Origin: a virus
Lineage: Duplodnaviria > Caudoviricetes
Reading direction: 5' to 3' (one strand)
DNA: 50,820 nucleotides
Virus record (IMG/VR): IMGVR_UViG_3300036818_000065
Location: 1 to 50,820 of that record
Of the stretch, positions 5,929-45,858 are shown piece after piece. Each line of letters begins with the position of its first letter. Within the stretch, counting starts at the first letter, position 1. The notes below the pieces were generated by a model. The model was not told where the DNA came from. It made no database searches and saw nothing but the letters and a program-made list of their open reading frames with translations. The translations under genes were made by a program, and so were the position numbers.

Positions 5929-6831
5929 ATGCCAAAAGAAAACAGCCCTGTTCATCCGCTGGGTCCTCCGACCCTGTCGGGCAACGAGCTCACGGTTGAC
6001 ACGATGCTGGAACAGCCAACCCGCATCACCAACATGATCATGGACCTGTCTCTGCAGAAATTCATCATCGACAGGATCTTTGCATCGGCTGGTGGTGTAA
6101 CCGGCGGCGCCATCGTGTACGACGTTACGAGCGCGAACGAAATTTACGCGTCGCGTGACATCGGGCGCGTGTCGCCTGGCGGCGAGTTCCCGCTCATCAC
6201 CAGCGAGCGTCCCGTACCCTCGATTGCAGAAGTCGAGAAGTGGGGCGCCAAAGTGTTCATCACTGAGGAGGCGAAAGAACGCAACAACAGCGCTCTCTTC
6301 ACCAACAAGGTTCGCCAGATGACGAACACCATCATCCGCAAGCTCAACCAGAGGGCTATTGCGGAGCTGGAGAAGTCGATTGAAGCATCTGAACAGAAAA
6401 CGAACGGAAACAATTGGGCGGCTGTCAAAACTGCCGGGGTCGAAGCCTCGCAGGCTGACAAATTCCCGGCGTTCGATTTCGCCCACGTTCAGCAGCTGGC
6501 AGACGAAGATGAGCTCGGCATCGTCTACAACCTGTGGCTCCTTAACCCGCAGGAGTTCACGCGGCTTGTCACGATCTACGGGTCGGCAAACCTGCGGCCT
6601 CTGCTGCAGGAGCTCGGCATCGACATCTACGTGTCGAACCGGGTTACCGCTGGAACGGCGTACGTCGTCGCCCAGCAGCAAGTCGGTGAGATGCGTGTCG
6701 AGAAACCGCTGACCACTCGTACGTGGTACGAGGAGGAAACCGAGCGCACCTGGGTTCAGTCCAGCGTCCGCCCGGTGATGTTCGTGAACAACCCGTTCGC
6801 GGTGGTCAAAGTAGAAAAACTCGCGGGGTGA
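5929..6831 (+). CDS. Major capsid protein
   Basis: 300 aa; position; strong SD; GC3-rich codons; VSPGGEFP, VEKWGAKVFITEE and LWLLNPQE motifs as in actinophage HK97-fold capsids. Confidence 0.85.
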   Translation: MPKENSPVHPLGPPTLSGNELTVDTMLEQPTRITNMIMDLSLQKFIIDRIFASAGGVTGGAIVYDVTSANEIYASRDIGRVSPGGEFPLITSERPVPSIAEVEKWGAKVFITEEAKERNNSALFTNKVRQMTNTIIRKLNQRAIAELEKSIEASEQKTNGNNWAAVKTAGVEASQADKFPAFDFAHVQQLADEDELGIVYNLWLLNPQEFTRLVTIYGSANLRPLLQELGIDIYVSNRVTAGTAYVVAQQQVGEMRVEKPLTTRTWYEEETERTWVQSSVRPVMFVNNPFAVVKVEKLAG

Positions 6832-7534: not shown

Positions 7535-7553
7535 AGTTGGCCGCAGACAGCAA

Positions 7554-7603
7554 GCAGGGCTGGCAGGCAACTGTCGGCCCTGCGCTGCCCGCGCTGGGGC
7601 AGC
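7554..7603 (+). other. Two tandem GC-rich hairpins (possible attenuator or processing signal)
   Basis: GCAGGGCTGGCAG-GCAA-CTGTCGGCCCTGC followed by GCTGCCC-N6-GGGCAGC; no U-tract. Confidence 0.55.
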
Positions 7604-9539: not shown

Positions 9540-10987
9540 TGCCTGCACCAGGTAGCGAAGTCATTGAACGTCAGTCTCCTCCCTCTCGGTCTACGCCGAT
9601 TCAGAGCGGGTCGTGGTTCATTGCCGGAATGGCAGACCGTGGCTCGGTCAAAGAAGCGGTGACCGTCCGCAATCTACAACAGTTCGAAGACGCATTCGGA
9701 GAATTCGTCAGTTACGGAACGTTGTACAGCGCTGCGGACGTGTTCTTCCGCGAGGGAGGTTCGGTCCTTAATGCGACGAGGGTGGTAGGACCGGCTGCCA
9801 AATCAGCAACCATCACGATCAAAAACGCTAGCGCAGAAAACACTCTCGTCGTAACGGCTATCAGCCCCGGTGAATGGGGCAATGACGTCGACGTAGAAAT
9901 CACTGCTGGCCTGGTTGAAGGCAACTTCACCATCACTGTCCTGGAGGACGGCAAAGAGGTGGAGGGGTCACTCGAACTCGCCGACAATGAAGCAGCTGTG
10001 GCTTGGGCTGCAGAACAGTCCAAATACATCAGGTTGGAAGATCTGGGTAAAGGCGATCCCAAAGCCGGGAAAGCTGAATTGAAAGAAGGAGCTGACGACA
10101 GGAACAACGCTCTCGATTCGCATTGGGAAGAAGCAATTAACAACAACTTCCCAAAGTCGATGGGTCCTGGGCAGGTCAGCATGCCAGGTCGCACCACCGA
10201 CGCTAGCTATAAAGCGCAGCTGGAACATTCCTTTGAAAGGAATCGGATCGCTCTGCTGGACGGAACCGACACCTCCAGCAAAGCTACGTTGATCGGCGAC
10301 GCTGCAGTTGGCCGGGCAATGGGAGTTGTCGGGGGCAAAGGTGGGCTGTTTGGCAGCTGGTACATAGTGCCCGGCCTCGCACTCGGAACGACCAGGACGG
10401 TCCCGCCCAGCTGCGTGGAGGCAGGCATCCTTGCCCGCCTGGCATCAGAAGGGTACAGCCCCAACAAACCGGGCGCAGGCGAACGCTACGGCCGTTCACG
10501 CTACGCCATCGACCTCGCTCAGCCGGAATGGTCAGAAGATGACCGCTCCGACCTGAATGAAGCCGGGGTCAATGTTGCGGTCATGAAGGACAGTGTTGCC
10601 GTCAACATGGGGTTCAGGACCATGGTCAACCCTGTCTCTAACGACACCTGGTTGCTGCTAAGCAACTCTAGGCTGTATATGGAGATTGCTGCAAAAGCAA
10701 ATCAGATCGCGGACAGCTACGTGTTCGAGGAGATCGACGGCAAGGGATTGGTGTTTGCCAAACTCAACGGTGAGCTCACTGGCATGTTGCTTCCCTACTT
10801 CCCAGGTTCGCTCTACGGCGAAACCTTCGAAGAAGCAGTGTTCGTCAACACCGGCTCTCAGGTCAACACGGAACAGACCATTGCCGCCCGCGAAATCAAT
10901 GCTGTGATCGAGCTTCGCATGGCTCCTTATGGAGAGCGTGTGAAAATTGAAATCAGCAAGATCGCGACCACGGAGGCGATCGTCTGA
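9539..10987 (+). CDS. Contractile tail sheath protein
   Basis: MPAPG..VIE, FEDAFG, FFREGG, AISPGEWGN, VPPS and LNEAGVN are sheath motifs; 482 aa. Confidence 0.9.
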   Translation: MPAPGSEVIERQSPPSRSTPIQSGSWFIAGMADRGSVKEAVTVRNLQQFEDAFGEFVSYGTLYSAADVFFREGGSVLNATRVVGPAAKSATITIKNASAENTLVVTAISPGEWGNDVDVEITAGLVEGNFTITVLEDGKEVEGSLELADNEAAVAWAAEQSKYIRLEDLGKGDPKAGKAELKEGADDRNNALDSHWEEAINNNFPKSMGPGQVSMPGRTTDASYKAQLEHSFERNRIALLDGTDTSSKATLIGDAAVGRAMGVVGGKGGLFGSWYIVPGLALGTTRTVPPSCVEAGILARLASEGYSPNKPGAGERYGRSRYAIDLAQPEWSEDDRSDLNEAGVNVAVMKDSVAVNMGFRTMVNPVSNDTWLLLSNSRLYMEIAAKANQIADSYVFEEIDGKGLVFAKLNGELTGMLLPYFPGSLYGETFEEAVFVNTGSQVNTEQTIAAREINAVIELRMAPYGERVKIEISKIATTEAIV

Positions 10988-11409
10988 TGCCCAAGCCAAG
11001 CCGACAGGACATGTACAGCGTCACGGTCGTGGTGCAAGACATCGGGAATACCGACGTCTGGGACAAATGCGATGGTGGCGAGGTTGACTCAAGCGAGAAG
11101 AAGTACAAGCCCGGAGCGATGGCGAAAGAGCTGTCGCTTGGCGGATTGCAGTCGGTAGGGAATCTGACGATCTCCAGGTACTACGACCTGGATCGTGACG
11201 GCGCTATCAAAAAGAAACTGATGTCTGGCGCCGGCAACAAAGAATGCGTCGTGACCAAGCAGCCGCTTGACGTCAATGGCATTCCGTACGGAGCTCCGGA
11301 CGTATACGCCGGAACTCTCAAAATGTGCAAACCGCCGGAGCCGGACAGCGAAGGATCTGACGAGGCGCGCATCGAAATCGAGGTCAGCAGCGCAGGCATC
11401 GTCGCCTAG
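10987..11409 (+). CDS. Tail tube protein
   Basis: Directly after the sheath; 140 aa; GGEVDS..KYKPG..LGG..NLTISR as in gp19-like tubes. Confidence 0.8.
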   Translation: MPKPSRQDMYSVTVVVQDIGNTDVWDKCDGGEVDSSEKKYKPGAMAKELSLGGLQSVGNLTISRYYDLDRDGAIKKKLMSGAGNKECVVTKQPLDVNGIPYGAPDVYAGTLKMCKPPEPDSEGSDEARIEIEVSSAGIVA

Positions 11410-11435: not shown

Positions 11436-12008
11436 ATGAGTCAGGTAATAGACGAGCAAGAGCCGGGTAGCGGAGTTGAGCCCGAGGAAGAGGGCGCGGC
11501 TGTAAGTGAGGGCCGCGCCCAATCGGTGATGGAGCGACTCAAAGCCAAGCGCAATGCGATTGGTTCGGACACCACCGTCAAGCTACCCATTCCCGGATAC
11601 GATGGAGAGCTCGTTGGTGAATTCAAGCGCATGCGTTGGGAGGCTCTCTCGGACATCGCAGAAGCAGCCGAAAAGGGTCGCTCAAAACGCAGGCAGCTGA
11701 ATGGCCACGCAGACGTCATCGCCACTGCCCTGCAGCAGCTGCTGATCCGGAAACTGCTGCCGGGCGGCGACACCGAAGACATCCCGATGCATGAGATGTT
11801 CCCGGATGAATTTGGTGAGACCCCGGTTCGGTTCGATCCACGCCTGAGCAGCTGGATGGAACTTGAGATCGACGGCACCCCCACTGCCCGCAAGGTGGTG
11901 TTCGGGGTGTTCAGCAATGATCTGGCAGTCACCGCCATGCACAACGAACTTGGCGAATGGATGCAGTCCAGCAAGTCTGAGGAGGACGAGGATTTCTCGA
12001 AGAGCTGA
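11436..12008 (+). CDS. Tail assembly chaperone (gpG-like)
   Basis: Between tube and tape measure genes; ends in slippery-like G_GAT_TTC (11990-11996). Confidence 0.75.
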   Translation: MSQVIDEQEPGSGVEPEEEGAAVSEGRAQSVMERLKAKRNAIGSDTTVKLPIPGYDGELVGEFKRMRWEALSDIAEAAEKGRSKRRQLNGHADVIATALQQLLIRKLLPGGDTEDIPMHEMFPDEFGETPVRFDPRLSSWMELEIDGTPTARKVVFGVFSNDLAVTAMHNELGEWMQSSKSEEDEDFSKS

Positions 12009-12217
12009 CGTATGGTGAGAACTCGATCGACATGGCGGCGAGGGTGCTCCTGGTTGGGGGAACTTTGAACGTGGTTGATGTCTTGAATGTCAAAGACCAA
12101 ACCGAGTTCACTATCCTTGACGTCATCGTCGATCGGGCTGCAGAATTTCAGGAAGTTCGAGACAAGAACCTAGCAACTGACATCGCCAACAAGATTGCAA
12201 AGAGCCAGAGGAAATAA
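11990..12217 (+). CDS. Tail assembly chaperone -1 frameshift extension (gpT-like)
   Basis: The -1 frame reads GGA TTT CTC GAA GAG CTG... with no stop into ORF 12032-12217. Confidence 0.65.
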   Translation, partial: GFLEELTYGENSIDMAARVLLVGGTLNVVDVLNVKDQTEFTILDVIVDRAAEFQEVRDKNLATDIANKIAKSQRK

Positions 12218-14622
12218 TGGGCCTGACTGAGGAGCAGATTGGTGTGAAGATGCGCCTACAGGGCACGTCTGAATATCAGGCCCAGATGAAGAAAAGTACG
12301 GACGTCACTCTGGCATACGGTGACGCCGCTGAGCGTGCTGGGGCTCAGGCCAAATCTGGCGCGGTTGGCATTGACGCTATGGCAGCGTCATCCAAAAAAG
12401 GCGTTGGTTCTCTAGAACGAATGAAGAAGGCCGGTGAGGGACTCAAGTCCACCGGCAGCAAGTTGACGGGAGCGTTCACCGTGCCCATCGCCCTCATCGG
12501 CGGCGTGGGCGTGAAGATGGCGCTTGACTTTAGCGATGCGATGGAGCAAATCTCCACGCAGGCAGGTGCATCGCAGCGAGAAGTTGGAATCATGACTAAA
12601 AAAGTCATGGAATTTGCTGCGTCTGGAAAATCATCTGAGGGACCCAATCAACTAGCAGAAGGCTTGTATAGCATCGAGTCGGCTGGCTTCCGAGGGAAAC
12701 GTGCATTTGAAGCGCTGGTCAGGTCGGAGCAGCTGGCGACCGTAGGACACGCAGACTTCGGCAAAACTTCCAAAGCCGTAGCAGCCGCCATGGCCACCCA
12801 GATCAAGGGTACCCAGAACTTGGGTGAAACCGTCGGACTGATGAACAGCATCGTCGGAATTGGGTCCATGCGGATGGAAGACCTGCTGTCAGCGATGGGC
12901 ACCGGCCTTCTGGACAAATCGGCTGGCCTCGGGCTTTCCTTGCAGGAAGTCGGGGCAGCGTTGGGAGTGCTCACTACGACGGGCACCCCGGCTGCAGCAT
13001 CCAGCACCCGCATGGCAATGGCCTTTAACATGATGGCTGCCCCGACGGAAAAAGCGGCCAAGGCTATGGAATCGATTGGCCTTAGCGAATCGCAGCTTGC
13101 AATGAGCATGCGCCAGCGAGGCCTGGTGCCAACCATCGAACTTTTGAAAAGCAAACTGGACGAAACTTTCGGAACCAACAAGCAGGGGTTGGTTGAACAG
13201 TCTAAGGCCATCAGTGAAATGTTCGGTGGCGGTCGTACCAGTGGCGGCATCATCAGCCTTATGCGCCACATCGACATGCTCAAATCAAAGACCGGAGAAC
13301 TCACCGGTTCTCAGGAGAAATTCAAACACGCCTTGGAGCACACTGAGGAGCAGCCCATCACGAAACTGCATCAAGCTTGGGCGCAGGCCCAGACGGTGTT
13401 GATCGAACTAGGGAACATCTTGATTCCCGTCCTGACTAAGGTAGTCAAATTCTTCACCGGACTGTTTCAAGCATTCTCTCATCTTCCTCCTAGCGTCAAG
13501 CAGGTGATTGTGTTCGCGATGCTGGCGATAGGTGTTCTCGGCCCGTTGCTGTCACTGATTGGAACTATGACTATTGGGATAGTTGCTCTTGGTGATGCAC
13601 TGATGTTCTTGGCCACCAACCCGGTCGGCGCGGTCATCACTGCAGTGGCGCTGGCAGCGATTGGATTCTACACTTTGTACACTCAAGTCGAATGGTTTCA
13701 CAAGGCTGTAGACGATGTTGTTAGCTTCTTGAAGGCGCACCCGCTACTGCTGTTTGGCATCAGCCCGTTCTTGGCCGAGGTGGTACTCATAATTCAGCAC
13801 TTTGACTGGATCAAGAACGCTGTACACAACGTCATTCACTTCTTCGAACTTCTACCCCAGCGGGCTTTGGCAGGAGTTCAAGCGCTCCCGGGTTTGATCA
13901 AAACTCTGGTGATTAAGTCCATTGTGTTCATGGCACTACTACCGATCAAGGTTCCGATCTTTTTTGTTCAGATGGGGATAAAGATCGTGGGCATCCTGAT
14001 AGGTTTGCTTCCCAAGCTGCTCAGCATCGGCGGGAAGATGGCGGTATTTATCGGCCACGGTGTTGCTCAAGGTGCATCTGCCATCTGGGGCTGGGTCAAG
14101 ACGCTGCCAGGCAAGTTCATGTCCGCCGTGGCTTCGATCGCTTCGCAGCTGGCAAGTGTCGGCGCTAACATCGCCAAGGAAATTGCCAACGGTCTGAAGA
14201 ACGAATTGTTGTCAATACTGCCCGGCCCTGTCAAGGATGCGCTCGAAGGAGCGACTGGGGTGGCAGGTGAAGTTGGCGGCTTCCTTGGTGGCGTGTTTGC
14301 GAGCGGCACCACCTTTGCGCCGGGCGGCATTTCACTGGTGGGCGAGCAAGGTCCGGAGCTGGTTAACCTGCCACGTGGCTCAGAAGTCATCAATGCCTCC
14401 CGCACCCGGCGCGTCATGGACAGCCCTGAAGCCACCGTACGGCCGCTGCGCTACCGGGGTGGGCCTACCCCCACGCGGCTTGAAAATGGGCGCGTACGTG
14501 GTGCAGGCGTGGCCAAGCGGCCTCCTATACGCCAGCCTATCAAGGTTGAGATGAAGGTTAGCAGGCGTACCTTCGGCGAGGCCATGGTGATGGCCCTGAT
14601 TGACGACGAGGAGAACGAATGA
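12217..14622 (+). CDS. Tape measure protein
   Basis: 801 aa, Ala/Gly-rich and helical; TP901-like core; hydrophobic segments; C-terminal FASG...LVGEQGPELVNLPRGSEV motif. Confidence 0.9.
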   Translation: MGLTEEQIGVKMRLQGTSEYQAQMKKSTDVTLAYGDAAERAGAQAKSGAVGIDAMAASSKKGVGSLERMKKAGEGLKSTGSKLTGAFTVPIALIGGVGVKMALDFSDAMEQISTQAGASQREVGIMTKKVMEFAASGKSSEGPNQLAEGLYSIESAGFRGKRAFEALVRSEQLATVGHADFGKTSKAVAAAMATQIKGTQNLGETVGLMNSIVGIGSMRMEDLLSAMGTGLLDKSAGLGLSLQEVGAALGVLTTTGTPAAASSTRMAMAFNMMAAPTEKAAKAMESIGLSESQLAMSMRQRGLVPTIELLKSKLDETFGTNKQGLVEQSKAISEMFGGGRTSGGIISLMRHIDMLKSKTGELTGSQEKFKHALEHTEEQPITKLHQAWAQAQTVLIELGNILIPVLTKVVKFFTGLFQAFSHLPPSVKQVIVFAMLAIGVLGPLLSLIGTMTIGIVALGDALMFLATNPVGAVITAVALAAIGFYTLYTQVEWFHKAVDDVVSFLKAHPLLLFGISPFLAEVVLIIQHFDWIKNAVHNVIHFFELLPQRALAGVQALPGLIKTLVIKSIVFMALLPIKVPIFFVQMGIKIVGILIGLLPKLLSIGGKMAVFIGHGVAQGASAIWGWVKTLPGKFMSAVASIASQLASVGANIAKEIANGLKNELLSILPGPVKDALEGATGVAGEVGGFLGGVFASGTTFAPGGISLVGEQGPELVNLPRGSEVINASRTRRVMDSPEATVRPLRYRGGPTPTRLENGRVRGAGVAKRPPIRQPIKVEMKVSRRTFGEAMVMALIDDEENE

Positions 14623-19118: not shown

Positions 19119-19442
19119 ATGGAAGAGTTTGACACTCCTCACTTCAAATCACCGTTCAGAATAGATGGGGCCACGGCTGCCTACGTAGAGCAGGACTCTA
19201 TTGAGGAGGTCATGCAAAATTGCGTGGCGATACTACGCACTCCATATGGCAGCCGCGAAGACATGAAGGACTTCGGTTTGATTCCTCAGGAATTTGAGGA
19301 CCTGGCTGCCATTACGGAGCATGACATAGAAGCGGCCCTGCTGCGAGACGAGCCGCGTGCTAGAGCACTGACTAGCTCGCAGCTGAAAACGCTGGTCCGT
19401 GAAGTTCAAGTTCAATTGCAAACGACCGCACAGGGGAGCTAA
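19119..19442 (+). CDS. Baseplate wedge protein (gp25/GPW-like)
   Basis: ILRTPYGSREDMKDFG...EPRA gp25 motifs. Confidence 0.85.
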   Translation: MEEFDTPHFKSPFRIDGATAAYVEQDSIEEVMQNCVAILRTPYGSREDMKDFGLIPQEFEDLAAITEHDIEAALLRDEPRARALTSSQLKTLVREVQVQLQTTAQGS

Positions 19443-19443
19443 G

Positions 19444-20613
19444 ATGGCTGAAGGATTTATCAACATTGCGATAGAGAGCGACCCTGATGTTTTGCGCCAG
19501 AGCGTGTACGAAAGGATCCAGGAACAGTTTCCAGAATGGAATCCTGCCAAGGCCGTGCTGGACAAATGGATCATCGATGGGTGTGCCCTCATTGGGGCAG
19601 ACCTTGGTGACGTGGCGGGCGTGGTGCCGGAAGAGATACTGCGACAGTTCGGCGAGACTATCTACAAAATTCCAGCACTGCTAGCCGAACCGGCAGTGGG
19701 TGTCATAACGATCAAAATACAGGACGGCAAAGGCTACCCAACCATCAAAGCCGGGACGCAGATGATGTTCGTCAAACCGGATGGGAACAAGGTTGCATTC
19801 CGTACCCAGGTCGACGTGGAAGTTCCAGTTGGCATGTCCGAAGTTAAAGAAGTTCCTATCGAATCTATCGAACCCGGAACTGAACAGAATCAGTTGTCCG
19901 ACGACCCACATCTTCTCGACAGCGTGTCCTACGTTACCGAACTTATCCAAACCAGCGCCAACACCAGCGGTGGCAAAGACGCTGAGACGCCAGAAGAATA
20001 TCTGGATCGCTTGACCGTCGAACTTGAACTGCTCAGCACTGCCCCCATCGTGCCCAAAGACTACGAGAAGCTGGCGCGGCGGGTTGGAATGTACAGGGCA
20101 GTGGCGATAGACGGCTGGGACCCGGTGGCTGAAACTGAAGGAAACGAACGCATGATCTCGGTAGCCATGGTCGATGAAGAAGGCGAAGGTGCCACGGCCA
20201 AAAAGAAAGAAGAATATGAAGCGGAAGTAGAGTCCAAACGTGAGGTCAATTTCGTCATACACGTCATCGACCCCACCTACAATGAAATCAACGTGCAGGT
20301 GGAAGCAGTAGCGCTGCCGGGGTTCGACAAAGACATTGTCAAAGAACAGATTGAATCAGCATTGGACAACTACCTTGCAGCTAGGAACTCTGGCAACAGC
20401 CCTGGTGAACCGCGCTCGTGGAGGCAGAACACTGTTGTTCGCAAAAATGAGTTGATCTGGCTGATCAACACGGTACAAGGCGTGGACTACATAGTGGGGG
20501 ATGTAAAACTGTCCAAGGGCGTTGGTGCGTTGAAAGCAGAAGATGTTCCGCTAACTGGCAAAGCTGCCCTCACCAAACCTAAGACCTTGACCGTCACGGT
20601 GGTGGAAGCCTGA
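19444..20613 (+). CDS. Baseplate J-like protein
   Basis: IKAGT, EPGTEQN, SGGKDAETPEEYLDRL and DYE motifs; ATG 19444 with GGGGAG. Confidence 0.9.
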   Translation: MAEGFINIAIESDPDVLRQSVYERIQEQFPEWNPAKAVLDKWIIDGCALIGADLGDVAGVVPEEILRQFGETIYKIPALLAEPAVGVITIKIQDGKGYPTIKAGTQMMFVKPDGNKVAFRTQVDVEVPVGMSEVKEVPIESIEPGTEQNQLSDDPHLLDSVSYVTELIQTSANTSGGKDAETPEEYLDRLTVELELLSTAPIVPKDYEKLARRVGMYRAVAIDGWDPVAETEGNERMISVAMVDEEGEGATAKKKEEYEAEVESKREVNFVIHVIDPTYNEINVQVEAVALPGFDKDIVKEQIESALDNYLAARNSGNSPGEPRSWRQNTVVRKNELIWLINTVQGVDYIVGDVKLSKGVGALKAEDVPLTGKAALTKPKTLTVTVVEA

Positions 20614-21221
20614 TGCCTCGACCCGAAGTTACCCAAGCTGCGGAGCTCCTATATGGACGCCTGTGGCCGTACACGTTGGAAGATGAAGCCAATGAATGGC
20701 AGCTGTTGTTGTTCTGCGAGTTCTTGGCTGGGACGTTGTTCGAGCAGGTGCGATCTTATGTCGCTGACCGACCTGAAATGCTTGGCTGGGAGATCGTCTT
20801 TAACGTGGACGCTTGCCCTCCAGAGGCACTGCCCTACCTGGCGCAATTCGTCGGCGTTCACTTCGACCCCAGCGAAACGGTTGAACAGCAACGGCAAAAG
20901 ATCAAGGATCGCCCGGCGTTCAGCCGAGGCACTCCGGCTGCGATACTGGCGGCTGCCAAGCAACGCTTGACTGGTGATAAGAACGTATATATGGAGGAGC
21001 GATTTGAAGGGCATGCATATCGCTTGCTGATCCGTGTATTCGGTAGCCAAACTCCGGACCCGGAAGGGACCGAGTCCGATATCCTCAAACAGAAGCCAGC
21101 TGGGATCAAACTAGTGTTTGAGGTGACCGGACTGAAAGTCTATTCAGAGATCAAAGCTGAATATGCCACCTATGCCAAACTCAAAGAAGCCGGAACCTAC
21201 CAAGAAGCGGCTGCGGAATAG
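20613..21221 (+). CDS. Baseplate wedge / P2 gpI-like tail protein
   Basis: CPPEALPYLAQFVGV...RGTPAAI...KPAGI motifs. Confidence 0.8.
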   Translation: MPRPEVTQAAELLYGRLWPYTLEDEANEWQLLLFCEFLAGTLFEQVRSYVADRPEMLGWEIVFNVDACPPEALPYLAQFVGVHFDPSETVEQQRQKIKDRPAFSRGTPAAILAAAKQRLTGDKNVYMEERFEGHAYRLLIRVFGSQTPDPEGTESDILKQKPAGIKLVFEVTGLKVYSEIKAEYATYAKLKEAGTYQEAAAE

Positions 21222-21228
21222 CCATTCG

Positions 21229-21237
21229 CGCTAAGAT
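21229..21237 (+). promoter_or_regulatory. Putative promoter -10 element (CGC-TAAGAT)
   Basis: Intergenic; identical to the CGCTAAGAT at 22932. Confidence 0.45.
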
Positions 21238-21300
21238 GTAGTACAGTTCGATAGGTAGCAGTAACAGGCAACGCACACAACAAAAGAGGGAGCACCTAGA

Positions 21301-21801
21301 ATGCCGAAAGGTAAAGCGAAAAGCAAAGGTCGGGCCAAGAACAACGACGAGGCTCTGATCAAGAAAGTTCTCGCCCTTCGCGGACGAGACAAGAAGTGGA
21401 GCGAGATCGGGGAAGAGCTCGGGATCACGCCGGGTAAGGCTCAGTTCCTCGTGATGCGTTCCGAGGTGAAGCCGAAAGACCGGATCAAATTCACCAACGA
21501 CGAAGATCTGGCCGCCAAGGTGGTTGCGGCTCGCGACAAGGACCTGCTCTCCTGGGGTCTGATCGCCGCGCGCTCGGGCGTGTCCGAGGGCAAGATCAAG
21601 CGCCTGTACGAGGAGGCCGGGGGCAAGGGGCCGCAGAACGTCGCCTCCGCTCGTGCCGGCGATGGAGAAAGCGCCCCGCGCAAAGCATCCAAAAAAGGCG
21701 CCAAAGCCAAAGGCAAAAAAGGCGCTCGCGAGAAAGTCGCTCGCAAAGGCAAAGGTCGGCGTAAAGGCAAAGGGCGCAAAAACCCTTCGACCAACAGCTG
21801 A
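21301..21801 (+). CDS. Histone-like DNA-binding protein: two HTH-like units plus a Lys/Arg-rich tail
   Basis: KKWSEIGEELGITPGKAQ and LSWGLIAARSGVSEGKIKRLY (HTH-like); KASKKGAKAKGKKG...KGKGRRKGKGRK tail; SD GAGGGAG. Confidence 0.75.
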   Translation: MPKGKAKSKGRAKNNDEALIKKVLALRGRDKKWSEIGEELGITPGKAQFLVMRSEVKPKDRIKFTNDEDLAAKVVAARDKDLLSWGLIAARSGVSEGKIKRLYEEAGGKGPQNVASARAGDGESAPRKASKKGAKAKGKKGAREKVARKGKGRRKGKGRKNPSTNS

Positions 21802-22016
21802 CCGATGAGGAGCTAGAGACCCTGCTGCCGGAAGGCCGCAGGGTCACTATCCTCTCGTCCTACGAAGGTCATTCTTTGGAGAATGAGTTCGTGGTCAAAT
21901 CGGTCAGGAGTTTCACCCCCGATACCGGAATCCTTCAATTCTGGGATCAGCACACCATGGGGCTACGGACCTATAAGGTCGCCGGCGAAGGGGCTTCGAA
22001 GATCATCCTCCACTAG
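21780..22016 (+). CDS. Putative -1 frameshift extension of the histone-like protein (not in the ORF track)
   Basis: Open frame KPFDQQLTDEELETLLPEGRRVTILSSYEGHSLENEFVVKSVRSFTPDTGILQFWDQHTMGLRTYKVAGEGASKIILH*; heptamer A_AAC_CCT at 21780-21786; downstream hairpin. Confidence 0.6.
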   Translation, partial: KPFDQQLTDEELETLLPEGRRVTILSSYEGHSLENEFVVKSVRSFTPDTGILQFWDQHTMGLRTYKVAGEGASKIILH

Positions 22017-22055
22017 GGCAGGTCACCCGTACGGAAATCGAAGGGTGGCCTGCCC
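22016..22055 (+). terminator. Strong hairpin (terminator or mRNA stabiliser)
   Basis: 13-bp stem GGGCAGGTCACCC / GGGTGGCCTGCCC starting in the stop codon of the extension frame; no U-tract. Confidence 0.55.
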
Positions 22056-22074
22056 ATCCACATAAGGAGCGACT

Positions 22075-22305
22075 ATGAAGTTTGAGTTCAAGAAAGTTCC
22101 AGTGCCGTCCCGCGCCAAGAAGAGCCTCGACAAGAGCGTTACCAACGTACGTGCGTTCAAGGTCAAATGTGACGGCAACGTCATTGGCACGGTGGTGGGC
22201 TCGGACATGGCAGGCAAGCCGGGTTGGGGATACATGCGAGAGGACAAGCTGTATGGCGGCTTCGGTACGCGACAGCTAGCAGCGGAACGGCTGGCGGCAT
22301 CATGA
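22075..22305 (+). CDS. Hypothetical protein
   Basis: SD TAAGGAG; ATGA coupling to the next gene. Confidence 0.75.
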   Translation: MKFEFKKVPVPSRAKKSLDKSVTNVRAFKVKCDGNVIGTVVGSDMAGKPGWGYMREDKLYGGFGTRQLAAERLAAS

Positions 22306-22502
22306 TCAAATTCAGGAAGAACAGGTCAAAACAGATCTTGGTTCTATCAGAGGTGTTGCGCATCAAATGTGACGCTCCTCGACTGGAGGTGTCGCAGTAC
22401 TCCGATGGCGGTTTGGGAGTGTCCAGGCTCAACGAGTCTGGCAAGGTCGAGGCTTACACCGCCATTGCTGTCGATGGCGAGACCAGGACGGAGGTTGCTT
22501 GA
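22302..22502 (+). CDS. Hypothetical protein
   Basis: ATG 22302 overlaps the upstream stop; stop overlaps the next start. Confidence 0.6.
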   Translation: MIKFRKNRSKQILVLSEVLRIKCDAPRLEVSQYSDGGLGVSRLNESGKVEAYTAIAVDGETRTEVA

Positions 22503-22723
22503 TGCCAAAGAAGACGCCAAGCCGAGACAAACGGCTTAAGATTGATCTCTGGGTGACGGATGGCCTGCGAGCTGCTGTGGGAGCCACCGTGCGTGACGAC
22601 GGTAAGCCCGCCAACGACACTCAGCTTCGCTACTGGGCGCAGCAGCAGGTAGACGAGGCCAGCACCCAGGAGGTTGAGAGGTTCGAGTCGCACCGCCGAC
22701 GCCCGCGCCGACGGGGGCAGTGA
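22499..22723 (+). CDS. Hypothetical basic protein
   Basis: SD GGAGG; coupled on both sides. Confidence 0.65.
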   Translation: MMPKKTPSRDKRLKIDLWVTDGLRAAVGATVRDDGKPANDTQLRYWAQQQVDEASTQEVERFESHRRRPRRRGQ

Positions 22724-22974
22724 TGGCTGGGCTGCCAGTCTACACCATCGAGAAGCGAGAACGCGGGTGGCTGTTTGTCAGCTGCCCGCGTAAAGACTGC
22801 GGCGAACAGTTTGCTGTGGTCCCTAGTCGCTGGGCCGAGTCCTGGAAGGGACATGGGCGTGCATGCCCATATTGCTTCCGCCCCTCAAAAATGCCTGCAA
22901 AACGTGGGGAAAAGCGGAAAGGATCGAAATCCGCTAAGATTTCTTCTACCAGCCAACGTAGAAGGAGCGTCTAG
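22720..22974 (+). CDS. Small zinc-finger-like protein
   Basis: CPRKDC...CPYC. Confidence 0.6.
   Translation: MMAGLPVYTIEKRERGWLFVSCPRKDCGEQFAVVPSRWAESWKGHGRACPYCFRPSKMPAKRGEKRKGSKSAKISSTSQRRRSV
22932..22956 (+). promoter_or_regulatory. Repeated promoter-leader motif, copy 1
   Basis: CGC-TAAGAT-N6-TACCAGCCAA, then AAGGAG and ATG 22976. Confidence 0.65.
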
Positions 22975-22975
22975 T

Positions 22976-24940
22976 ATGGAAGCCAAAGCCAGCCTACACG
23001 AAGACTCGAAGATCAAGGTCGAGTTTCCATGGCATCCCAAAGCCGTTCAAGTCATCAGGGGAATCCCTGGAGCTCGTTTCACGCCGCGTGAGAAGGGTGG
23101 TCCGTTCTGGCTGCTGCCGCTCAGTATGGAGAGCGGACGCGCGCTGCGCGAAGCTTTCAGTTCTGATGGTGATTCGATCGCTTATAGCAAACAGTTGCTA
23201 GTCTGGGGCCGGGAGCAACGCGACCGCGAGCGTAATCTGGCCAATGTAACGCTTGCCGATGACGCAAAGCTACCACGTCTGGAAAGCCTTGACGTTCATA
23301 TGCCCAAGGAGTTCCGGAGGTCTAACAAACGTCTCAAAAAAGAAGGGCGCAAAGCCAACTACGACAGCCAGCCGCTACATAAGTGGATGCGATCTGATCA
23401 GCGCGTCAACGCTGCATTCATGGCCAAGACCAGCTGCATCAACGGCGACCAGCAGGGGCTGGGCAAGACGGTTGAGTGGATCGCTGCAATTTACGAGGCT
23501 GAAATGGAAAACGGTTACCACCTAGTGTCAGCTCCCGTCACCTCGTTAGAGAACACTTGGGTGACTGAGATTGAGAAGTGGATGGACATCACTATCCTGA
23601 CCGGCGACAACCCCGCTAAGCGCAAACTGGCGCTGGAGGTTGCGGTGGAAATGTACGAAGCGGAGGAACCGTTCGTACTACTGATCAACCCGGCCATGAT
23701 CATCATGCACACGGAGAAGAAGGACGGCATACCGGTGCACGTTGATTCCAAAGGTCGTGCTGTCCGCACGCCTAAGAATCCAGGGTTTGAGCAGATTGAT
23801 TGGACTACGGTAACCGTGGACGAGTTCCACAAGATGGGGCTGGGCAACCCCAACACTGCCCAGCGTGAGGCGCACATCCGCGTCGGCCGTAAAGCGGAGC
23901 GGTTATGGCCGATGTCTGGCACTCCAATGGGCGGCAAGCCGATCAAGTTGTGGGGTGCGCTGAATGCCATATTTCCAAAACAGTTCAGCAGCAAATGGGC
24001 GTTCGTCGGGCACTATCTGGAGACGGAAGAGCGCGAGTACGAAAAAGAAGGCGAGCAACGAACTGGCCAGGTCATCGGTGGTATCCGTCCCGAGAAAGAA
24101 GAGGCGCTGACCCGCATGCTGGCCAGCTACATGGTTAGGCACCTCAAGAGTGAAGTGCTCAAAGACCTGCCTCCTAAGCAGTATGAGGACGTGTGGTGCG
24201 CCATGCATCCTAAACAGCGCAAACAGTACGAGGCATTTGCCAAGGAAGCCGAGATCAAACTCGAAACTGAGCGCATGTCCGTGCAGAACGTGCTGGATGA
24301 GTACACGCGGCTCAAACAGTTTGCCAGCGCTTGGCAAAAGGTTGTCAAGGCCGGCATGCGAGAAACCCAAGATGGTGACACGTTGCCGGTATGGCAGCTT
24401 ACGCCTCACGCAGACGCTTGTGGCAAGCTGCCCTACCTGCTAGACAAACTAGCTGAGCAGGGCATCACGCCGGACGATCCGGATGGCGATAGCGTAGCTG
24501 TTGTCGGTAGCCAGTTCAAGACGGTAGTCAAGATGCTGCATGGTCACTTGAACAAGATCGGCATCAAGGCTGAGATGATCACTGGAGATACCAAGGAGAA
24601 GGATCGCAATGCCATAGTGCAGCGCTTCCAGAACGGCTCCGAGGACAGCCCGCGAGTGCTGCTGTTGGTCACGACGGCAGCGGTGTCTCTCACGCTCGAC
24701 CGGGCTGACACCGTCCACATCATGGACGAGACTTGGAACCCAGACGATCAGGAACAGTTGGAGGACCGCATCCACCGAAGCAGCCGCATTCACCAAGTTA
24801 TTTGCTTCTACTACCGCAGCAAAGACACTCTGGAGGAATACATTCAAGAGATCACTGGCGGCAAGATAGTTGTCAACAAAAAGGTGCTTGACGAGCTCCG
24901 CAAGAAATTGAAAGACAGTCTTGTTGCCGAAGCCGCATAA
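22976..24940 (+). CDS. SNF2-family (SF2) helicase/ATPase
   Basis: GDQQGLGKT Walker A, VDEFH Walker B, MSGTP, WNP..QEQLEDRIHR motif VI; start reassigned to ATG 22976 (SD AAGGAG). Confidence 0.9.
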   Translation: MEAKASLHEDSKIKVEFPWHPKAVQVIRGIPGARFTPREKGGPFWLLPLSMESGRALREAFSSDGDSIAYSKQLLVWGREQRDRERNLANVTLADDAKLPRLESLDVHMPKEFRRSNKRLKKEGRKANYDSQPLHKWMRSDQRVNAAFMAKTSCINGDQQGLGKTVEWIAAIYEAEMENGYHLVSAPVTSLENTWVTEIEKWMDITILTGDNPAKRKLALEVAVEMYEAEEPFVLLINPAMIIMHTEKKDGIPVHVDSKGRAVRTPKNPGFEQIDWTTVTVDEFHKMGLGNPNTAQREAHIRVGRKAERLWPMSGTPMGGKPIKLWGALNAIFPKQFSSKWAFVGHYLETEEREYEKEGEQRTGQVIGGIRPEKEEALTRMLASYMVRHLKSEVLKDLPPKQYEDVWCAMHPKQRKQYEAFAKEAEIKLETERMSVQNVLDEYTRLKQFASAWQKVVKAGMRETQDGDTLPVWQLTPHADACGKLPYLLDKLAEQGITPDDPDGDSVAVVGSQFKTVVKMLHGHLNKIGIKAEMITGDTKEKDRNAIVQRFQNGSEDSPRVLLLVTTAAVSLTLDRADTVHIMDETWNPDDQEQLEDRIHRSSRIHQVICFYYRSKDTLEEYIQEITGGKIVVNKKVLDELRKKLKDSLVAEAA

Positions 24941-24942
24941 AA

Positions 24943-25124
24943 CCACTGCACCCCTACGGGCGCGTACGTACGCGGACGCTCGGGCGTATCCCGCGAGGAG
25001 GCTGCTAGTTTGGCCTGAGTCCTCGTTCGAGCGTCCGCCCGTACGTACGAGAGCGCGGACCCGATCGCGAGAGATTGGCTGGGTAGCGCCTCTCGCGCGG
25101 GGGCGCGCGTAGCGGGTGTAGCGG
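24943..25124. other. Structured non-coding element, copy A
   Basis: Nested inverted repeats: CTGCACCC/GGGTGTAG, CTACG/CGTAG, CGTACGTACG-CGGACGCTCG / CGAGCGTCCG-CC-CGTACGTACG, CGCGAGAG/CTCTCGCG; homologous to 42351-42470. Confidence 0.75.
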
Positions 25125-27187: not shown

Positions 27188-27260
27188 GCCGGGTTAGACT
27201 AATTGGAAAAGTCGCAGGCTTTGTAAGCCTGAGTTGCGAGTTCGAATCTCGTACCCGGTA
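27188..27260 (+). tRNA. tRNA-Thr (anticodon UGU), CCA not encoded
   Basis: Full cloverleaf: acceptor GCCGGGT/ACCCGGT, D-stem GACT/AGTC, anticodon stem CAGGC/GCCTG with loop TTTGTAA, T-arm GCGAG-TTCGAAT-CTCGT. Confidence 0.9.
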
Positions 27261-27340
27261 CTCCCCGCAAGGGGATGGAGCCCCCTGGGGCGGTGGCCAA
27301 CTAGGGCTGCCGCCCCAACCAACTAAAAGGAGCAACTAGA

Positions 27341-29777: not shown

Positions 29778-32575
29778 AAGTCACGGACGAGCAAATTGCC
29801 AAGCTCAAACCGTTCCTGGTTGGGGAGCGGCCCGGTGGTGACGGGGAGTGGGGGATGTTTTGTCCCCTGCACCCCGACACCACCCGCTCGGCAAGCCTCA
29901 ACGTCAACAAGGGTGTCTTCCACTGCCAGGCTTGTAGCGAAGGTGGCTCCGTCGACATGCTGATCGATTTAGAGGATACTTGGGTCAAACCCGAGGGACG
30001 TGTAAACAGCCGCGCCCGGCCTGCCCGCGCCAGCGTAGCACCCAGCGACGAGGTGTCGAAGGGAAAGGTGCGCGGATGGCATGCCGCCCTTCTGCAAGAT
30101 CATCCAGCGAGGCTAGACAACTTAATGTCTGCGCGTGGTGTCAACGAAGAGTTGATTCGTGACTTTGAGATTGGATGGGATGCCAACAGGCGGGTATACA
30201 CGATCCCCATCTACAGCAACAAGGGTGACATCTGGAACGTACGGCGTTACGACCTCAAGCCTCACGGCGACCGCCGCAAGATGTGGAGCGTCAAAGGCAT
30301 GGGAGCGCCGCGCTTGTATCCCGTCAAGCAGCTGCTAGACAAGCCCGACTACATCATCATCTGCGAGGGCGAGTGGGACTGTCTTCTCACTATTCAACAC
30401 GACTTTCACGCCATCACCCGAACGGGGGCAGCGGACGTATGGGAAGACCGATGGAATCAGCTGTTCAAAGGCATGACTATTTACCTAGCGCACGACAGCG
30501 ACTACAAGGGACAGCTGGCTAATCGCAAGATCGGAGAACAACTGCTGGGCATTGCAGATGAGGTGCGAGTGCTACGACTGCCCTACCCGGTGATCAAAAA
30601 AGACGGCAAAGACTTGACTGACTTCTGGCTCGACTACAGTGATCATCCAGAGGCTGAGATGCGCTCCTTGATGGAAGACGCTCAGCTGTTCAATCCTCGC
30701 ATGTTTGAAGTTGAAGACACCGATGCCTCTGATGCCAGCGTGCTAGACAGCTTCGACTCGAGGCGCGTGGCGCAGCCTATGCGGTTGACTGTCACCATCA
30801 AGGGCAAGCGGGACCCAGGATTCTCCATTCCACGCAAGGTGAAATACCAGTGTACGATGGACGCTGGGACCAAGTGTCAAACTTGTCCGTTGTTGCAAGC
30901 ACAAGGCCAAGCAAATGTGGAGATCCCAGCCGCTGATCCTGTGGTGCTTGAGATGATGGAGAGCACCAAAGGACAGTTGCGTGACATTCTTCGTATGCAC
31001 TACGGCATCCCCAAATGTCAAAGACTTGAGATTACTGTCGACCAGCATCAGGCAGTGGAGATCCTCTACGCCCGCCCCAGCATTGACCACGTCAAGAGCG
31101 AGGAGGCTGCAGACTTCAAGAATGTCAAGATTACTAGCGTGGGCAAACACGACACGCTGCCCAACAACACGGTACAGGCGGTGGGCGCGTTGCATCCTGA
31201 CCCTCGTCGGCAGACCAATGAGTTTCAAGCTTGGGACGTGAGCGTGATGGAAACCAGCTTGGACAAATACGAGTTGGACGAGGACGACGTTGAAATGCTT
31301 AAGCGGTTTCGACCCCGAACCGGACAGCGGCCACTCAGCAAGCTGGCAGAGATAGCACGAGACATGAGCGCTCATGTGACCAAGATATATGGTAGGCCGG
31401 AGCTGCATGCCGCTATCGATCTGACGTTCCATAGCGCTCTCAGCTTCAACTTTGGTGGGCAGCATGTTGATCGAGGTTGGCTTGAGTTGCTGGTGGTGGG
31501 TGACACTCGTACGGGCAAGAGCGAGACTGCCCTCAAGCTGAGCAGGCACTACGGCGCAGGCGAGCTCGTGTCCTGTGAGGCAGCTAGCTATGCAGGCATA
31601 GTAGGTGGCCTGCAACAATATGGTTCAAAAGAGTGGAGCGTCACCTGGGGTGCTATCCCTATCAACGACAGGCGGCTAGTCATCCTGGATGAGATTGGAG
31701 GCATGCATCCGGAGGAGATTGCGGCCATGAGCTCCGTCCGGTCTAGCGGTACTGCCGAGCTGACCAAAATTCAGAGCGAGCGTACGTACGCCAGGACGAG
31801 GCTGATCTGGCTTGGCAACCCGCGTAATGGTCGCATGAGCGACTATACGTACGGAGTTCAAGCCATCAGACCGCTCATCGGCAACGATGAGGACATTGCC
31901 CGCTTCGACCTGGCCATGAGTGTGGTGGCTGATGAGGTTCCAGCTCAGGCCATCAACACGGTGCGAGTGGTGGGCTCTAACCCTTACTCAGACGAGGCCT
32001 GCAACAAGCTGCTACGATGGGCCTGGTCACGCAAGGCCGGTGATGTCGTGTGGGTGGAGGGCGCGCAGGAGGAAGTATTGGAGGCAGCCAACCAGTTGGG
32101 TCGCAAGTTCATTGAGGACCCGCCGTTGGTACAGGCCGCCAACATACGCATCAAGGTAGCACGGCTGGCAGTGGCCATGGCCATTCGGTTGTTCAGCAGC
32201 GACGAGGATTTCGAGCGGGTGCTGGTTCGTAGAGAACACGTACAAGACGCGGTGCGTTTCCTCGAACGTATATACAGCATGAAGAACTTTGGATATGCCG
32301 AGCGCAGCCAGGAACTGATACACGACCGTCGTGAGGCTGAGGACCATCGTGCTTACATAGAACGATATCTTGAGGCCAACCCCAACCTTGCCAAGTTCTT
32401 GCGCGGTACCGGGTCATTCCGCCGACCTGACATTGAGGAGATCATGCACATTGGTCGTGAAGAAGCTAACGCCATCATCGCCACCCTCTGGGACCGCCGC
32501 ATGATCCGCAAAGAGAAAGGCGACAGCAAAGTGGAGCCAACGCTGCACCGAATTTTGAGGGAGATCAAGGCATGA
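29774..32575 (+). CDS. Primase-helicase fusion: CHC2 Zn finger, TOPRIM and MCM-type AAA+ helicase
   Basis: CPLHPD..S...FHCQAC; ICEGEWD, HDSD..G and KDLTDF (TOPRIM); LLVVGDTRTGKS, SYAGI, ILDE, GNP and ARFDL (MCM motifs). Confidence 0.85.
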   Translation: MKVTDEQIAKLKPFLVGERPGGDGEWGMFCPLHPDTTRSASLNVNKGVFHCQACSEGGSVDMLIDLEDTWVKPEGRVNSRARPARASVAPSDEVSKGKVRGWHAALLQDHPARLDNLMSARGVNEELIRDFEIGWDANRRVYTIPIYSNKGDIWNVRRYDLKPHGDRRKMWSVKGMGAPRLYPVKQLLDKPDYIIICEGEWDCLLTIQHDFHAITRTGAADVWEDRWNQLFKGMTIYLAHDSDYKGQLANRKIGEQLLGIADEVRVLRLPYPVIKKDGKDLTDFWLDYSDHPEAEMRSLMEDAQLFNPRMFEVEDTDASDASVLDSFDSRRVAQPMRLTVTIKGKRDPGFSIPRKVKYQCTMDAGTKCQTCPLLQAQGQANVEIPAADPVVLEMMESTKGQLRDILRMHYGIPKCQRLEITVDQHQAVEILYARPSIDHVKSEEAADFKNVKITSVGKHDTLPNNTVQAVGALHPDPRRQTNEFQAWDVSVMETSLDKYELDEDDVEMLKRFRPRTGQRPLSKLAEIARDMSAHVTKIYGRPELHAAIDLTFHSALSFNFGGQHVDRGWLELLVVGDTRTGKSETALKLSRHYGAGELVSCEAASYAGIVGGLQQYGSKEWSVTWGAIPINDRRLVILDEIGGMHPEEIAAMSSVRSSGTAELTKIQSERTYARTRLIWLGNPRNGRMSDYTYGVQAIRPLIGNDEDIARFDLAMSVVADEVPAQAINTVRVVGSNPYSDEACNKLLRWAWSRKAGDVVWVEGAQEEVLEAANQLGRKFIEDPPLVQAANIRIKVARLAVAMAIRLFSSDEDFERVLVRREHVQDAVRFLERIYSMKNFGYAERSQELIHDRREAEDHRAYIERYLEANPNLAKFLRGTGSFRRPDIEEIMHIGREEANAIIATLWDRRMIRKEKGDSKVEPTLHRILREIKA

Positions 32576-45700: not shown

Positions 45701-45858
45701 CATCCACATCTGGGTTTGATCGACCCTGCATAGTGGGTGGCATGAGCGCCCTCGTCGACCCTGGCTGGTGTTGGCGAGGGCGCTACCCTTGAGAGGCTGT
45801 TGCTTGTGCGCGTAGCCGGGTGAAGGGCCGTTCGATTTCTGGGCGGCCCTTTGCCTTT
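45701..45858 (+). ncRNA. Candidate small structured RNA
   Basis: Preceded by CGC-TAAGCT (45690-45698); several consecutive hairpins; ends in a terminator-like stem. Confidence 0.4.
45823..45858 (+). terminator. Rho-independent terminator-like hairpin
   Basis: AAGGGCCGTTC-N7-GGGCGGCCCTT followed by TGCCTTT. Confidence 0.65.

Follow-up and report, generated by a model that had tools for sequence, protein, structure and literature searches.

Known frameshifts in phages cluster in the genes for tail chaperones and capsids. In the G/GT tail chaperone of lambda, a -1 site within the last codons of the upstream gene allows a minority product to gain a C-terminal domain from an overlapping open reading frame (ORF) that has no start of its own, and the break between the two frames is conserved across diverged phages, as described in the available part of PMC5009743. 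The same part of that paper gives Z_ZZN as the minimal -1 site, in use by the insertion sequence IS1222. The PRFect paper mentions frameshifts, either predicted or reported, for further phage genes including cro, lysins and polymerases, so that a shift in a non-structural phage gene is not without precedent. Here we describe a locus in the virus record IMGVR_UViG_3300036818_000065 of IMG/VR (Duplodnaviria; Caudoviricetes), the whole 50,820-nucleotide stretch of which is called the window. A gene at 21301-21801 encodes a 166-residue protein with two helix-turn-helix (HTH) units and a basic tail, and is followed in the -1 frame by an ORF for a predicted small beta-rich domain, referred to below as the extension. 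As proposed here, the locus would resemble that of lambda in each of the respects listed above, and we consider its best reading, with a probability of roughly 0.55, to be a programmed -1 frameshift that yields isoforms of 166 and about 238 residues.

The open -1 frame and the gene upstream

The apparently intergenic stretch 21802-22016 proved on checking to be what the earlier note had described, an open -1 frame bounded upstream by a TAA and without ATG, GTG or TTG until 21876. It forms with the 166-residue gene a 0/-1 pair of ORFs that overlap only briefly (21765-21801), and the downstream member has no usable canonical start. A codon table was trained on 28 long genes of the same phage and scored as log-likelihood per codon. 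Read in the -1 frame, the sequence 21780-22013 scored +0.361, compared with a mean of 0.360 for the true genes, while its other two frames scored -0.48 and -0.34 and none of the off-frame windows of 78 codons reached +0.361. The 25 codons ahead of the TTG at 21876 scored +0.391. An AlphaFold2 model of the extension, made from a seven-row alignment, had a mean predicted local distance difference test (pLDDT) value of 82.8 and a predicted template modelling (pTM) score of 0.70. In this model the first eight residues are disordered and are followed by a helix (residues 9-15) and five strands (21-28, 31-46, 51-56, 62-66 and 74-77), so that a start at the TTG would cost the domain its helix, strand 1 and some of strand 2. 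The gene-like codon score and the confident fold prediction both agree with the earlier description of the extension as protein-like and as a small beta-rich domain.

A search of representative proteins with the extension returned six matches (P0019-P0024), among which P0019 and P0022 are relatives. P0019 and P0026 are ORFs of 46 residues with 65-67% identity to the last 46 residues of the extension. P0022 is a protein of 100 residues with its own ATG and a basic N-terminus; it has 43% identity to the extension and shares the motif E-G-R-R-V-T, which in the window is encoded upstream of the TTG. Two others, P0020 and P0023, have only a short motif in common with the extension and were judged, on reading, to be spurious matches to long repeat proteins; P0021 (1,703 residues) and P0024 (1,598 residues) are also long. 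The extension had no Pfam match better than an E value of 0.16 and no PHROG match, and the WYL profile (PF13280) was not among its Pfam matches at E up to 1. Searches of PDB sequences returned no match with an E value under 0.029. Atlas leads scored at most 0.85, and one lead of 0.82 pointed to a cluster in which 12% of the members carry WYL. Taken over codon usage, the predicted fold and these relatives, we judge that the downstream -1 frame is truly coding.

The protein encoded upstream is, by its sequence and modelled structure, a DNA binder that combines two HTH units with a disordered, basic tail. Its two HTH repeats lie at about residues 15-60 and 65-108 and are followed by a Lys/Gly/Arg-rich tail; the 17 homologues in alignment A1 (161-218 residues) have in common a three-helix unit repeated twice and a variable tail rich in Lys, Gly, Ala and Arg. 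Pfam matches to sigma-70 region 4 (PF04545 and PF08281) were sub-threshold, at 17.1 and 15.1 bits compared with cut-offs of 24.1 and 25.7, and PHROGs gave a weak match to 'HTH DNA binding protein'. No significant match to a transposase was found in Pfam or PHROG. In the structural model of L003, one of the related loci described below, the first HTH unit superposes on the DNA-binding domain of DeoR (Z 8.8, root-mean-square deviation (rmsd) 1.2, 50 residues aligned), and it also resembles the HTHs of sigma region 4, LuxR and resolvases at Z of about 6-7. The label 'histone-like' given in the earlier note is unsupported: neither the PDB sequence search nor Pfam and PHROG at E up to 1 gave an HU/IHF, H-NS or Lsr2 family, the N-terminal half of the architecture consists of two HTH units of the ordinary three-helix type, and the richness of the tail in Lys, Gly and Arg is the sole trait that is reminiscent of such proteins.

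Conservation of the frame break and relatives of the added domain

Ten close homologues of the 166-residue protein, at 53-83% identity, were obtained from Logan and JGI assemblies, one of them (P0011) being present in ENA as well. The protein in the window ends with the conserved tail K-N-P-S-T-N-S directly before the TGA, and the window and all ten homologues end with x-P-S plus one to four residues. The residue before the tail proline is N in seven cases, S in two, and D and R in one each. Four of the homologues (P0003, P0004, P0007 and P0008) have D, R or S at this place, so that neither a run of five A nor A_AAC is possible there. Although K dominates the tail, K, E and Q never precede this proline, which is the outcome that would be expected if a C were required before the CCT. 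None of the 17 homologues has an in-frame domain, and when longer proteins were searched for the extension, not one of 65 candidates scored. P0002 and P0019, for which the longest contig has the same length (4,338 bp), probably lie together on one contig in an arrangement like that of the window.

We also compared ten related loci for which DNA was available (L001-L010), of which L005 and L006 are the same sequence and L009 is truncated at the end of its contig. One of these, L004, is at 40% identity and repeats the arrangement in the window: its 0-frame gene ends with P-D-P-S and a stop, and the sequence continues for about 100 codons in the -1 frame with no stops and with a G+C content at third codon positions (GC3) of 0.82, compared with 0.66 and 0.45 in the other frames. 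The junctions read GAC CCT TCC in L004 and AAC CCT TCG in the window, with the bases AC CCT TC in common, and the helix motif of L004 is encoded past the 0-frame stop but ahead of the earliest canonical start, a GTG at 1311.

Runs of AAAAA and CCC (21778-21785) adjoin the break in the window, where an assembly indel or slippage by RNA polymerase might produce the same appearance. The junction of L004 has no run longer than three, the same 0-frame tail occurs in all ten close homologues, including the four in which a run of five A is impossible, and five A or three C are shorter than the runs known for transcriptional slippage (compare the A/T runs in the available part of PMC5009743). Because the break is kept in the ten close homologues and again in L004, an assembly error is very unlikely, a judgement that we extend to slippage. 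The break is better seen as conserved than as erroneous.

L001, L003 and L007 each encode one continuous protein of 209-234 residues, with two HTH units, a basic linker and a C-terminal domain, and L002, L005/L006, L008 and L010 end at the basic tail without that domain. The earlier note had placed the beta-rich domain in the HTH protein, which agrees with its in-frame position in these three distant homologues; it had also named simple in-frame fusions among homologues as grounds against a shift, and such fusions occur only in the same distant relatives (31-38% identity) and not in the close clade. In L002 the region 3001-3604 encodes an acidic stretch and a helix-rich segment ahead of the basic tail, where others have the barrel, and we take this segment to resemble a motif of the SAP/Rho-N type.

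The model of L003 is disordered at residues 130-163 and continues with a helix (172-179) and five strands, the order of elements being the same as in the extension of the window. When the domains of the window type were compared with those in frame, profile against profile, the E value was 0.0039 over 53 columns, a weak match that is in register, and a helix motif, T-x-E-E/D...E-G, is visible in alignment A3. Among the matches listed for the C-terminal domain of L003, chains of the Hfq/Sm type were the best (Z 6.4, rmsd 2.6, 59 residues aligned). The extension of the window matched Hfq with Z 4.5 and rmsd 2.6 over 53 aligned residues, its top row being the C-terminal domain of BirA at 4.6. For both models the Hfq/Sm scores tie with those of SH3, KOW and Tudor barrels. 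Foldseek found nothing at E 0.001 or better for the extension or for the L003 model, and the top rows for the whole chain of L003 were weak matches to regulators of the WYL/DtxR type (E about 0.02, template modelling score about 0.2). By sequence and by model, then, we conclude that in the window the C-terminal domain of this HTH-HTH family has been displaced from its frame and is the extension.

The in-frame versions in the distant relatives indicate that a split event did happen. It might be that a fixed frameshift mutation split an in-frame HTH-barrel gene in the ancestor of the clade, and that the downstream part is a slowly decaying relic that is not usefully made or is made only as the 46-residue product of the TTG. 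The domain-less loci indicate that the domain is dispensable in some lineages, and gene callers recorded the 166-residue protein and, for the downstream part, fragments of at most 46 residues. Decay of this kind is difficult to reconcile with a frame that is intact over 83 codons without a stop, with codon usage that is gene-like also upstream of the TTG, or with a confident fold from the seven-row alignment; moreover, P0019 and P0026 retain their identity to the extension with no stop, the -1 frame of L004 keeps its GC3 of 0.82, and the 0-frame tail has been kept while the HTH parts diverged. We consider a relic improbable.

The slip motif, the RNA structures and the proposed shift

The only sites in the overlap at which re-pairing in the -1 frame is possible are A_AAC and C_CCT, which together make up the heptamer A_AAC_CCT. 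The earlier note had singled out this heptamer, and it is indeed present, in phase and unique within the 12-codon overlap; as a whole, however, it is not the conserved element. L004 has G_GAC_CCT at the corresponding place, with C_CCT but no heptamer, and because L004 and four of the ten close homologues exclude A_AAC, only C_CCT can be common to all. In-frame heptamers occupy 18 of 11,605 codon positions in the 28 long genes, from which 0.017 would be expected in an overlap of this size. Within long genes, in-frame heptamers were seen at 10150, 16338, 32987, 4728 and 30061; they comprise C_CCA_AAG in the sheath gene, A_AAA_AAG twice and G_GGA_AAG twice, all of which are highly shift-prone types.

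Two other features near the motif were considered as contributors and rejected. The UCG that follows it is used for 15% of the Ser codons in this phage and so is not rare, which excludes it as a 'hungry' codon, and the AAGGGC that lies 7-8 nucleotides upstream in the window and in L004 follows from the Lys-Gly-rich tail and has a spacing unfit for a Shine-Dalgarno-like stimulator.

The stem that the earlier note had placed at about 21800-21859 is real. The 126-nucleotide fold that contains it has an energy of -50.8 kcal/mol and a z score of -4.26, none of 200 shuffled sequences being as stable, and the 60-nucleotide main hairpin was matched or beaten by 0.18% of 5,076 windows of the genome. 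Its core pairs 21818-21825 with 21838-21845, with an inner GCC/GGC and a GGAA loop, and the same sequence also encodes the helix and the first strand of the domain. The downstream structure in L004 has a z score of -5.31. A role for the main hairpin as a shift stimulator is plausible.

The 13-bp hairpin that the same note had seen at the stop codon of the -1 frame is likewise real. It ends 20 nucleotides before the ATG of the next gene (22075), with the ribosome-binding site of that gene in between, and a canonical intrinsic terminator was ruled out, there being no U tract. Rfam gave no match for 21600-22200 at E up to 1. We also rejected a repeated family of intergenic hairpins, as the other strong hairpins of the genome have no common sequence and some are inside genes. 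Local hairpins of the highest stability in the genome (-35 to -44 kcal/mol per 60 nucleotides) lie at about 7551-7600, 22761-22795, 25050-25105, 27285-27320 (intergenic, after the tRNA), 29830-29885 and 45740-45790, with no mutual likeness in sequence; some of the strongest fall in ORFs, namely the small ORF 22720-22974 and the start of the primase gene.

Several observations weigh against a programmed shift. The usual spacing from motif to stimulator is 5-9 nucleotides, and the main hairpin begins 13 nucleotides after the motif in the window (3 nucleotides to the 4-bp outer helix) and 0 nucleotides after it in L004. At the corresponding place the in-frame L001 is just as structured (z -4.13; L003 -1.01, L007 -0.61), and the main hairpin might alternatively be an element located past the stop of the 0 frame. 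At the nucleotide level, conservation of the slip site is seen in the window and L004 only, and the downstream ORF of L004 has no significant similarity to the extension of the window or to the in-frame domains. In addition, C_CCU and A_AAC_CCU belong to a weak class of motifs by the E. coli data in the available part of PMC4066793, in which the tetramers that shift -1 with a pseudoknot rank A_AAG >> U_UUC > U_UUU > C_CCU = C_CCC > A_AAA, at 0.26-5.6%. Heptamers with CCC as the second triplet are among the poorest shifters in the same part of the paper, A_AA.C_CC.A being one of three below the threshold.

Some features of the sequence would instead suit two separate proteins, the barrel being translated from a non-canonical start without any frameshift. 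The CTG at 21798 overlaps the 0-frame stop in the manner of coupled ATGA junctions, and a start there would retain the entire helix and barrel; a second CTG, at 21822, lies 9 nucleotides after a Shine-Dalgarno-like GAGGAG (21807-21812). P0022 provides an example of the domain as a stand-alone protein, and L004 has GTG codons in the right frame at 1311 and 1332. CTG is, on the other hand, a rare and poor initiator in bacteria, the GAGGAG is taken up by pairing within the lower stem of the main hairpin, and L004 has no CTG between its stop and the GTG at 1311, while a start at either GTG would cut its helix motif. Separate initiation also leaves unexplained the x-P-S tail and the AC CCT TC bases shared with L004, and the in-frame homologues show a domain that is normally joined to the HTH part. 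All considered, we regard two independently started proteins as unlikely.

We therefore return to the programmed -1 frameshift as our preferred reading; the two frames, the motif, the RNA structure, the coding quality and foldability of the extension, the in-frame fusions in distant homologues and the conserved 0-frame tail are observed, and the slip, its exact site, its efficiency and its purpose are what we infer. In this scheme most ribosomes would read the 0 frame to the TGA and release the 166-residue protein with its two HTH units and basic tail. A minority would move back one base at C_CCU, where tRNA-Pro would re-pair from CCU to CCC as a cognate codon, and would continue in the -1 frame from the UUC at 21786 to the TAG. 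The shifted product would have 162 + 76 = 238 residues, in which the basic linker leads into a helix and a five-strand barrel of the Sm/SH3 kind. The likely stimulator would be the structured RNA at 21789-21896, which includes the main hairpin, and by the class of the motif the efficiency would probably be a few percent or less. The two products of 166 and about 238 residues put forward in the earlier note would follow from such a shift.

Table 1. Features of the window that are referred to in the text, in order of position
Feature	Position	Strand	Remarks
Tube gene	10987-11409	+	PHROG match
Tape measure gene	12217-14622	+	PHROG match
Baseplate J-like ORF	19399-20613	+	Label from translation and position, unscored
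P2 gpI-like gene	20613-21221	+	Pfam Tail_P2_I, E 2.6e-07
0-frame gene, 166 residues	21301-21801	+	TGA stop at 21799-21801
TAA closing the -1 frame upstream	21762-21764	+	5' limit for any shift site
-1 open frame	21765 to TAG 22014-22016	+	83 codons
A_AAC_CCT heptamer	21780-21786	+	Correct phase; sole X_XXY_YYZ heptamer in the overlap 21765-21801
C_CCT tetramer	21783-21786	+	3' half of the heptamer; recurs in L004
-1 coding stretch as read after a shift	21786-22016	+	76 codons + TAG; predicted disordered link, one helix, five strands
CTG in the -1 frame	21798-21800	+	Overlaps the 0-frame TGA 21799-21801
Main hairpin, imperfect	21800-21859	+	-34.7 kcal/mol; candidate 3' stimulator
Second hairpin	21862-21891	+	Enclosed with the main hairpin by a 4-bp outer helix, 21789-21792 / 21893-21896
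TTG, first canonical start in the -1 frame	21876-21878	+	Residue 33 of 78 in the extension, within strand 2
13-bp hairpin	22016-22028 / 22043-22055	+	Shares its first base with the end of the extension's TAG; z -3.81, 0 of 200 shuffles as stable
SNF2-type helicase ORF	22775-24940	+	Label by reading of the translation, unscored

Genome setting and comparison with known systems

The record is complete, with direct terminal repeats at its ends, a G+C content of 56% over its whole length, and long genes that are all on the + strand. PHROG matches identified genes for the portal, a head protease or scaffold, the major head protein, tail sheath, tube and tape measure, and also for a primase-helicase, DNA polymerase, exonuclease and large terminase; this set of genes, with sheath, tube and tape measure, marks the virus as a contractile-tailed phage. 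The nearest cultured relatives of the major head protein (5929-6831) are from phages of Gordonia, Mycobacterium and Arthrobacter at identities of at most 47.5%, and its relatives number 272 records, each below 60% identity. These relatives hint at an actinobacterial host, despite a G+C content of only 56%. A single tRNA-Thr (anticodon UGU; 27188-27261) lies directly 3' of the exonuclease gene. The portal ORF (1674-3905) and the long ORF after it (3721-5448) have 185 bases in common; the last 130 residues of the former match a family of head maturation proteases, the latter also matches protease families, and the end of the former or the start of the latter may have been mis-set by simple ORF listing.

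The gene at 21301 is preceded by the baseplate J-like ORF and the P2 gpI-like gene and followed by a few small genes and the SNF2-type helicase ORF. It is thus located after the baseplate genes and not between tube and tape measure, the position of a tail chaperone. That position is occupied by an ORF of 190 residues (11436-12008), a candidate for a tail-chaperone shift of its own, which is followed by a -1 ORF (11981-12217) that ends at the start of the tape measure gene, as is classic for tail chaperones. The only shift-prone motif in their overlap is T_TTC (11993-11996), followed by TCG, which is also the next codon after C_CCT. Neither member of the pair has a PHROG match, the RNA fold is not strong (z -0.57), and the -1 ORF has an ATG at 12032. 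Considered side by side, T_TTC and C_CCT suggest that this phage relies on tetramer shift sites.

Relatives of the locus were sought in several collections. No match among GenBank phages was obtained by blastn of 20600-22400 or by tblastn of the extension or of the 166-residue protein, and no homologue of either was found in the cultured phages of GenBank. Scans of IMG/VR with the HTH alignments gave only two distant loci (L001/L012 and L002/L013), and scans with the extension alignment and with the downstream ORF of L004 found nothing there. Genome contigs scanned with the HTH and extension alignments yielded no match, and a metagenome scan yielded eight loci, none of which belongs to the close clade.

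Barrels of the Sm/SH3 kind commonly mediate self-association or bind single-stranded nucleic acid. Our guess is that the barrel would add self-association or a second contact with nucleic acid, and that the ratio of the long to the short form would tune the action of the protein on DNA. It is tempting to go further and to propose that, in a clade of uncultivated contractile-tailed phages, a conserved low-efficiency shift at C_CCU in a non-structural gene sets the ratio of HTH-HTH isoforms with and without an Sm-like barrel, that the short form modulates or opposes the long one, and that the family has toggled between in-frame, frameshift-dependent and domain-less versions. We hold this fuller proposal only tentatively, and in all its parts together it is doubtful.

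If true, isoform ratios set by recoding would extend to a DNA-binding protein at the border between the structural and replication modules, which would be a regulatory switch outside the genes for virion assembly, and the locus would provide a natural weak tetramer site that is kept by selection. The HTH-HTH family would also allow in-frame and frameshift-dependent versions to be compared, and a folded domain has gone unannotated in this group of phages because the extension escapes gene callers. No account of a frameshift in a double-HTH phage protein was met in the literature that was searched.

Beyond the likeness to lambda G/GT set out at the beginning, the locus differs from that system in that the gene in the window is an HTH protein after the baseplate genes and has the weak C_CCU rather than G_GGA_AAG. 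An N-terminal HTH followed by a small beta-barrel is also the plan of the WYL proteins CapW, PafBC, DriD and BrxR and of DtxR/IdeR. These regulators have one winged HTH, whereas the protein in the window pairs two HTH units with a long disordered linker of basic character and has no WYL match; the scores of the WYL/DtxR and of the Hfq/Sm matches alike imply a common fold only.

In the IS3 family (IS911, IS1222), the short product is an HTH DNA binder, a further domain is gained by a -1 shift close to its end, and activity depends on the proportion of the two products, which regulates it; IS1222 uses a tetramer-only site, A_AAG, and 3' structures act as stimulators in the family (PMC5009743 and PMC4066793, available parts). 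The locus, as proposed, would resemble these elements in such respects, but the window has no transposase domain, inverted repeats or mobile element there, and the part that would be added is a barrel of 70 residues. dnaX, with its tau and gamma products, offers a different parallel, a family with an in-frame long form and a shift-dependent long form, in which the 0-frame stop lies just past the site (PMC5009743, available part). That pattern is matched here by L001, L003 and L007, in which the domain is in frame, and by the clade of the window and L004, in which the frame is broken. dnaX is nevertheless an unrelated protein, with A_AAA_AAG, an upstream Shine-Dalgarno-like element, a close hairpin and an efficiency of 50%, and the motif in the window predicts far less. 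By analogy, a fixed minority of the long isoform beside a majority of the short one would resemble the logic of OrfA/OrfAB or of gamma/tau. Compared with all of these systems, the mechanism proposed is a known one, and the class of gene and the domain are new for -1 frameshifting.

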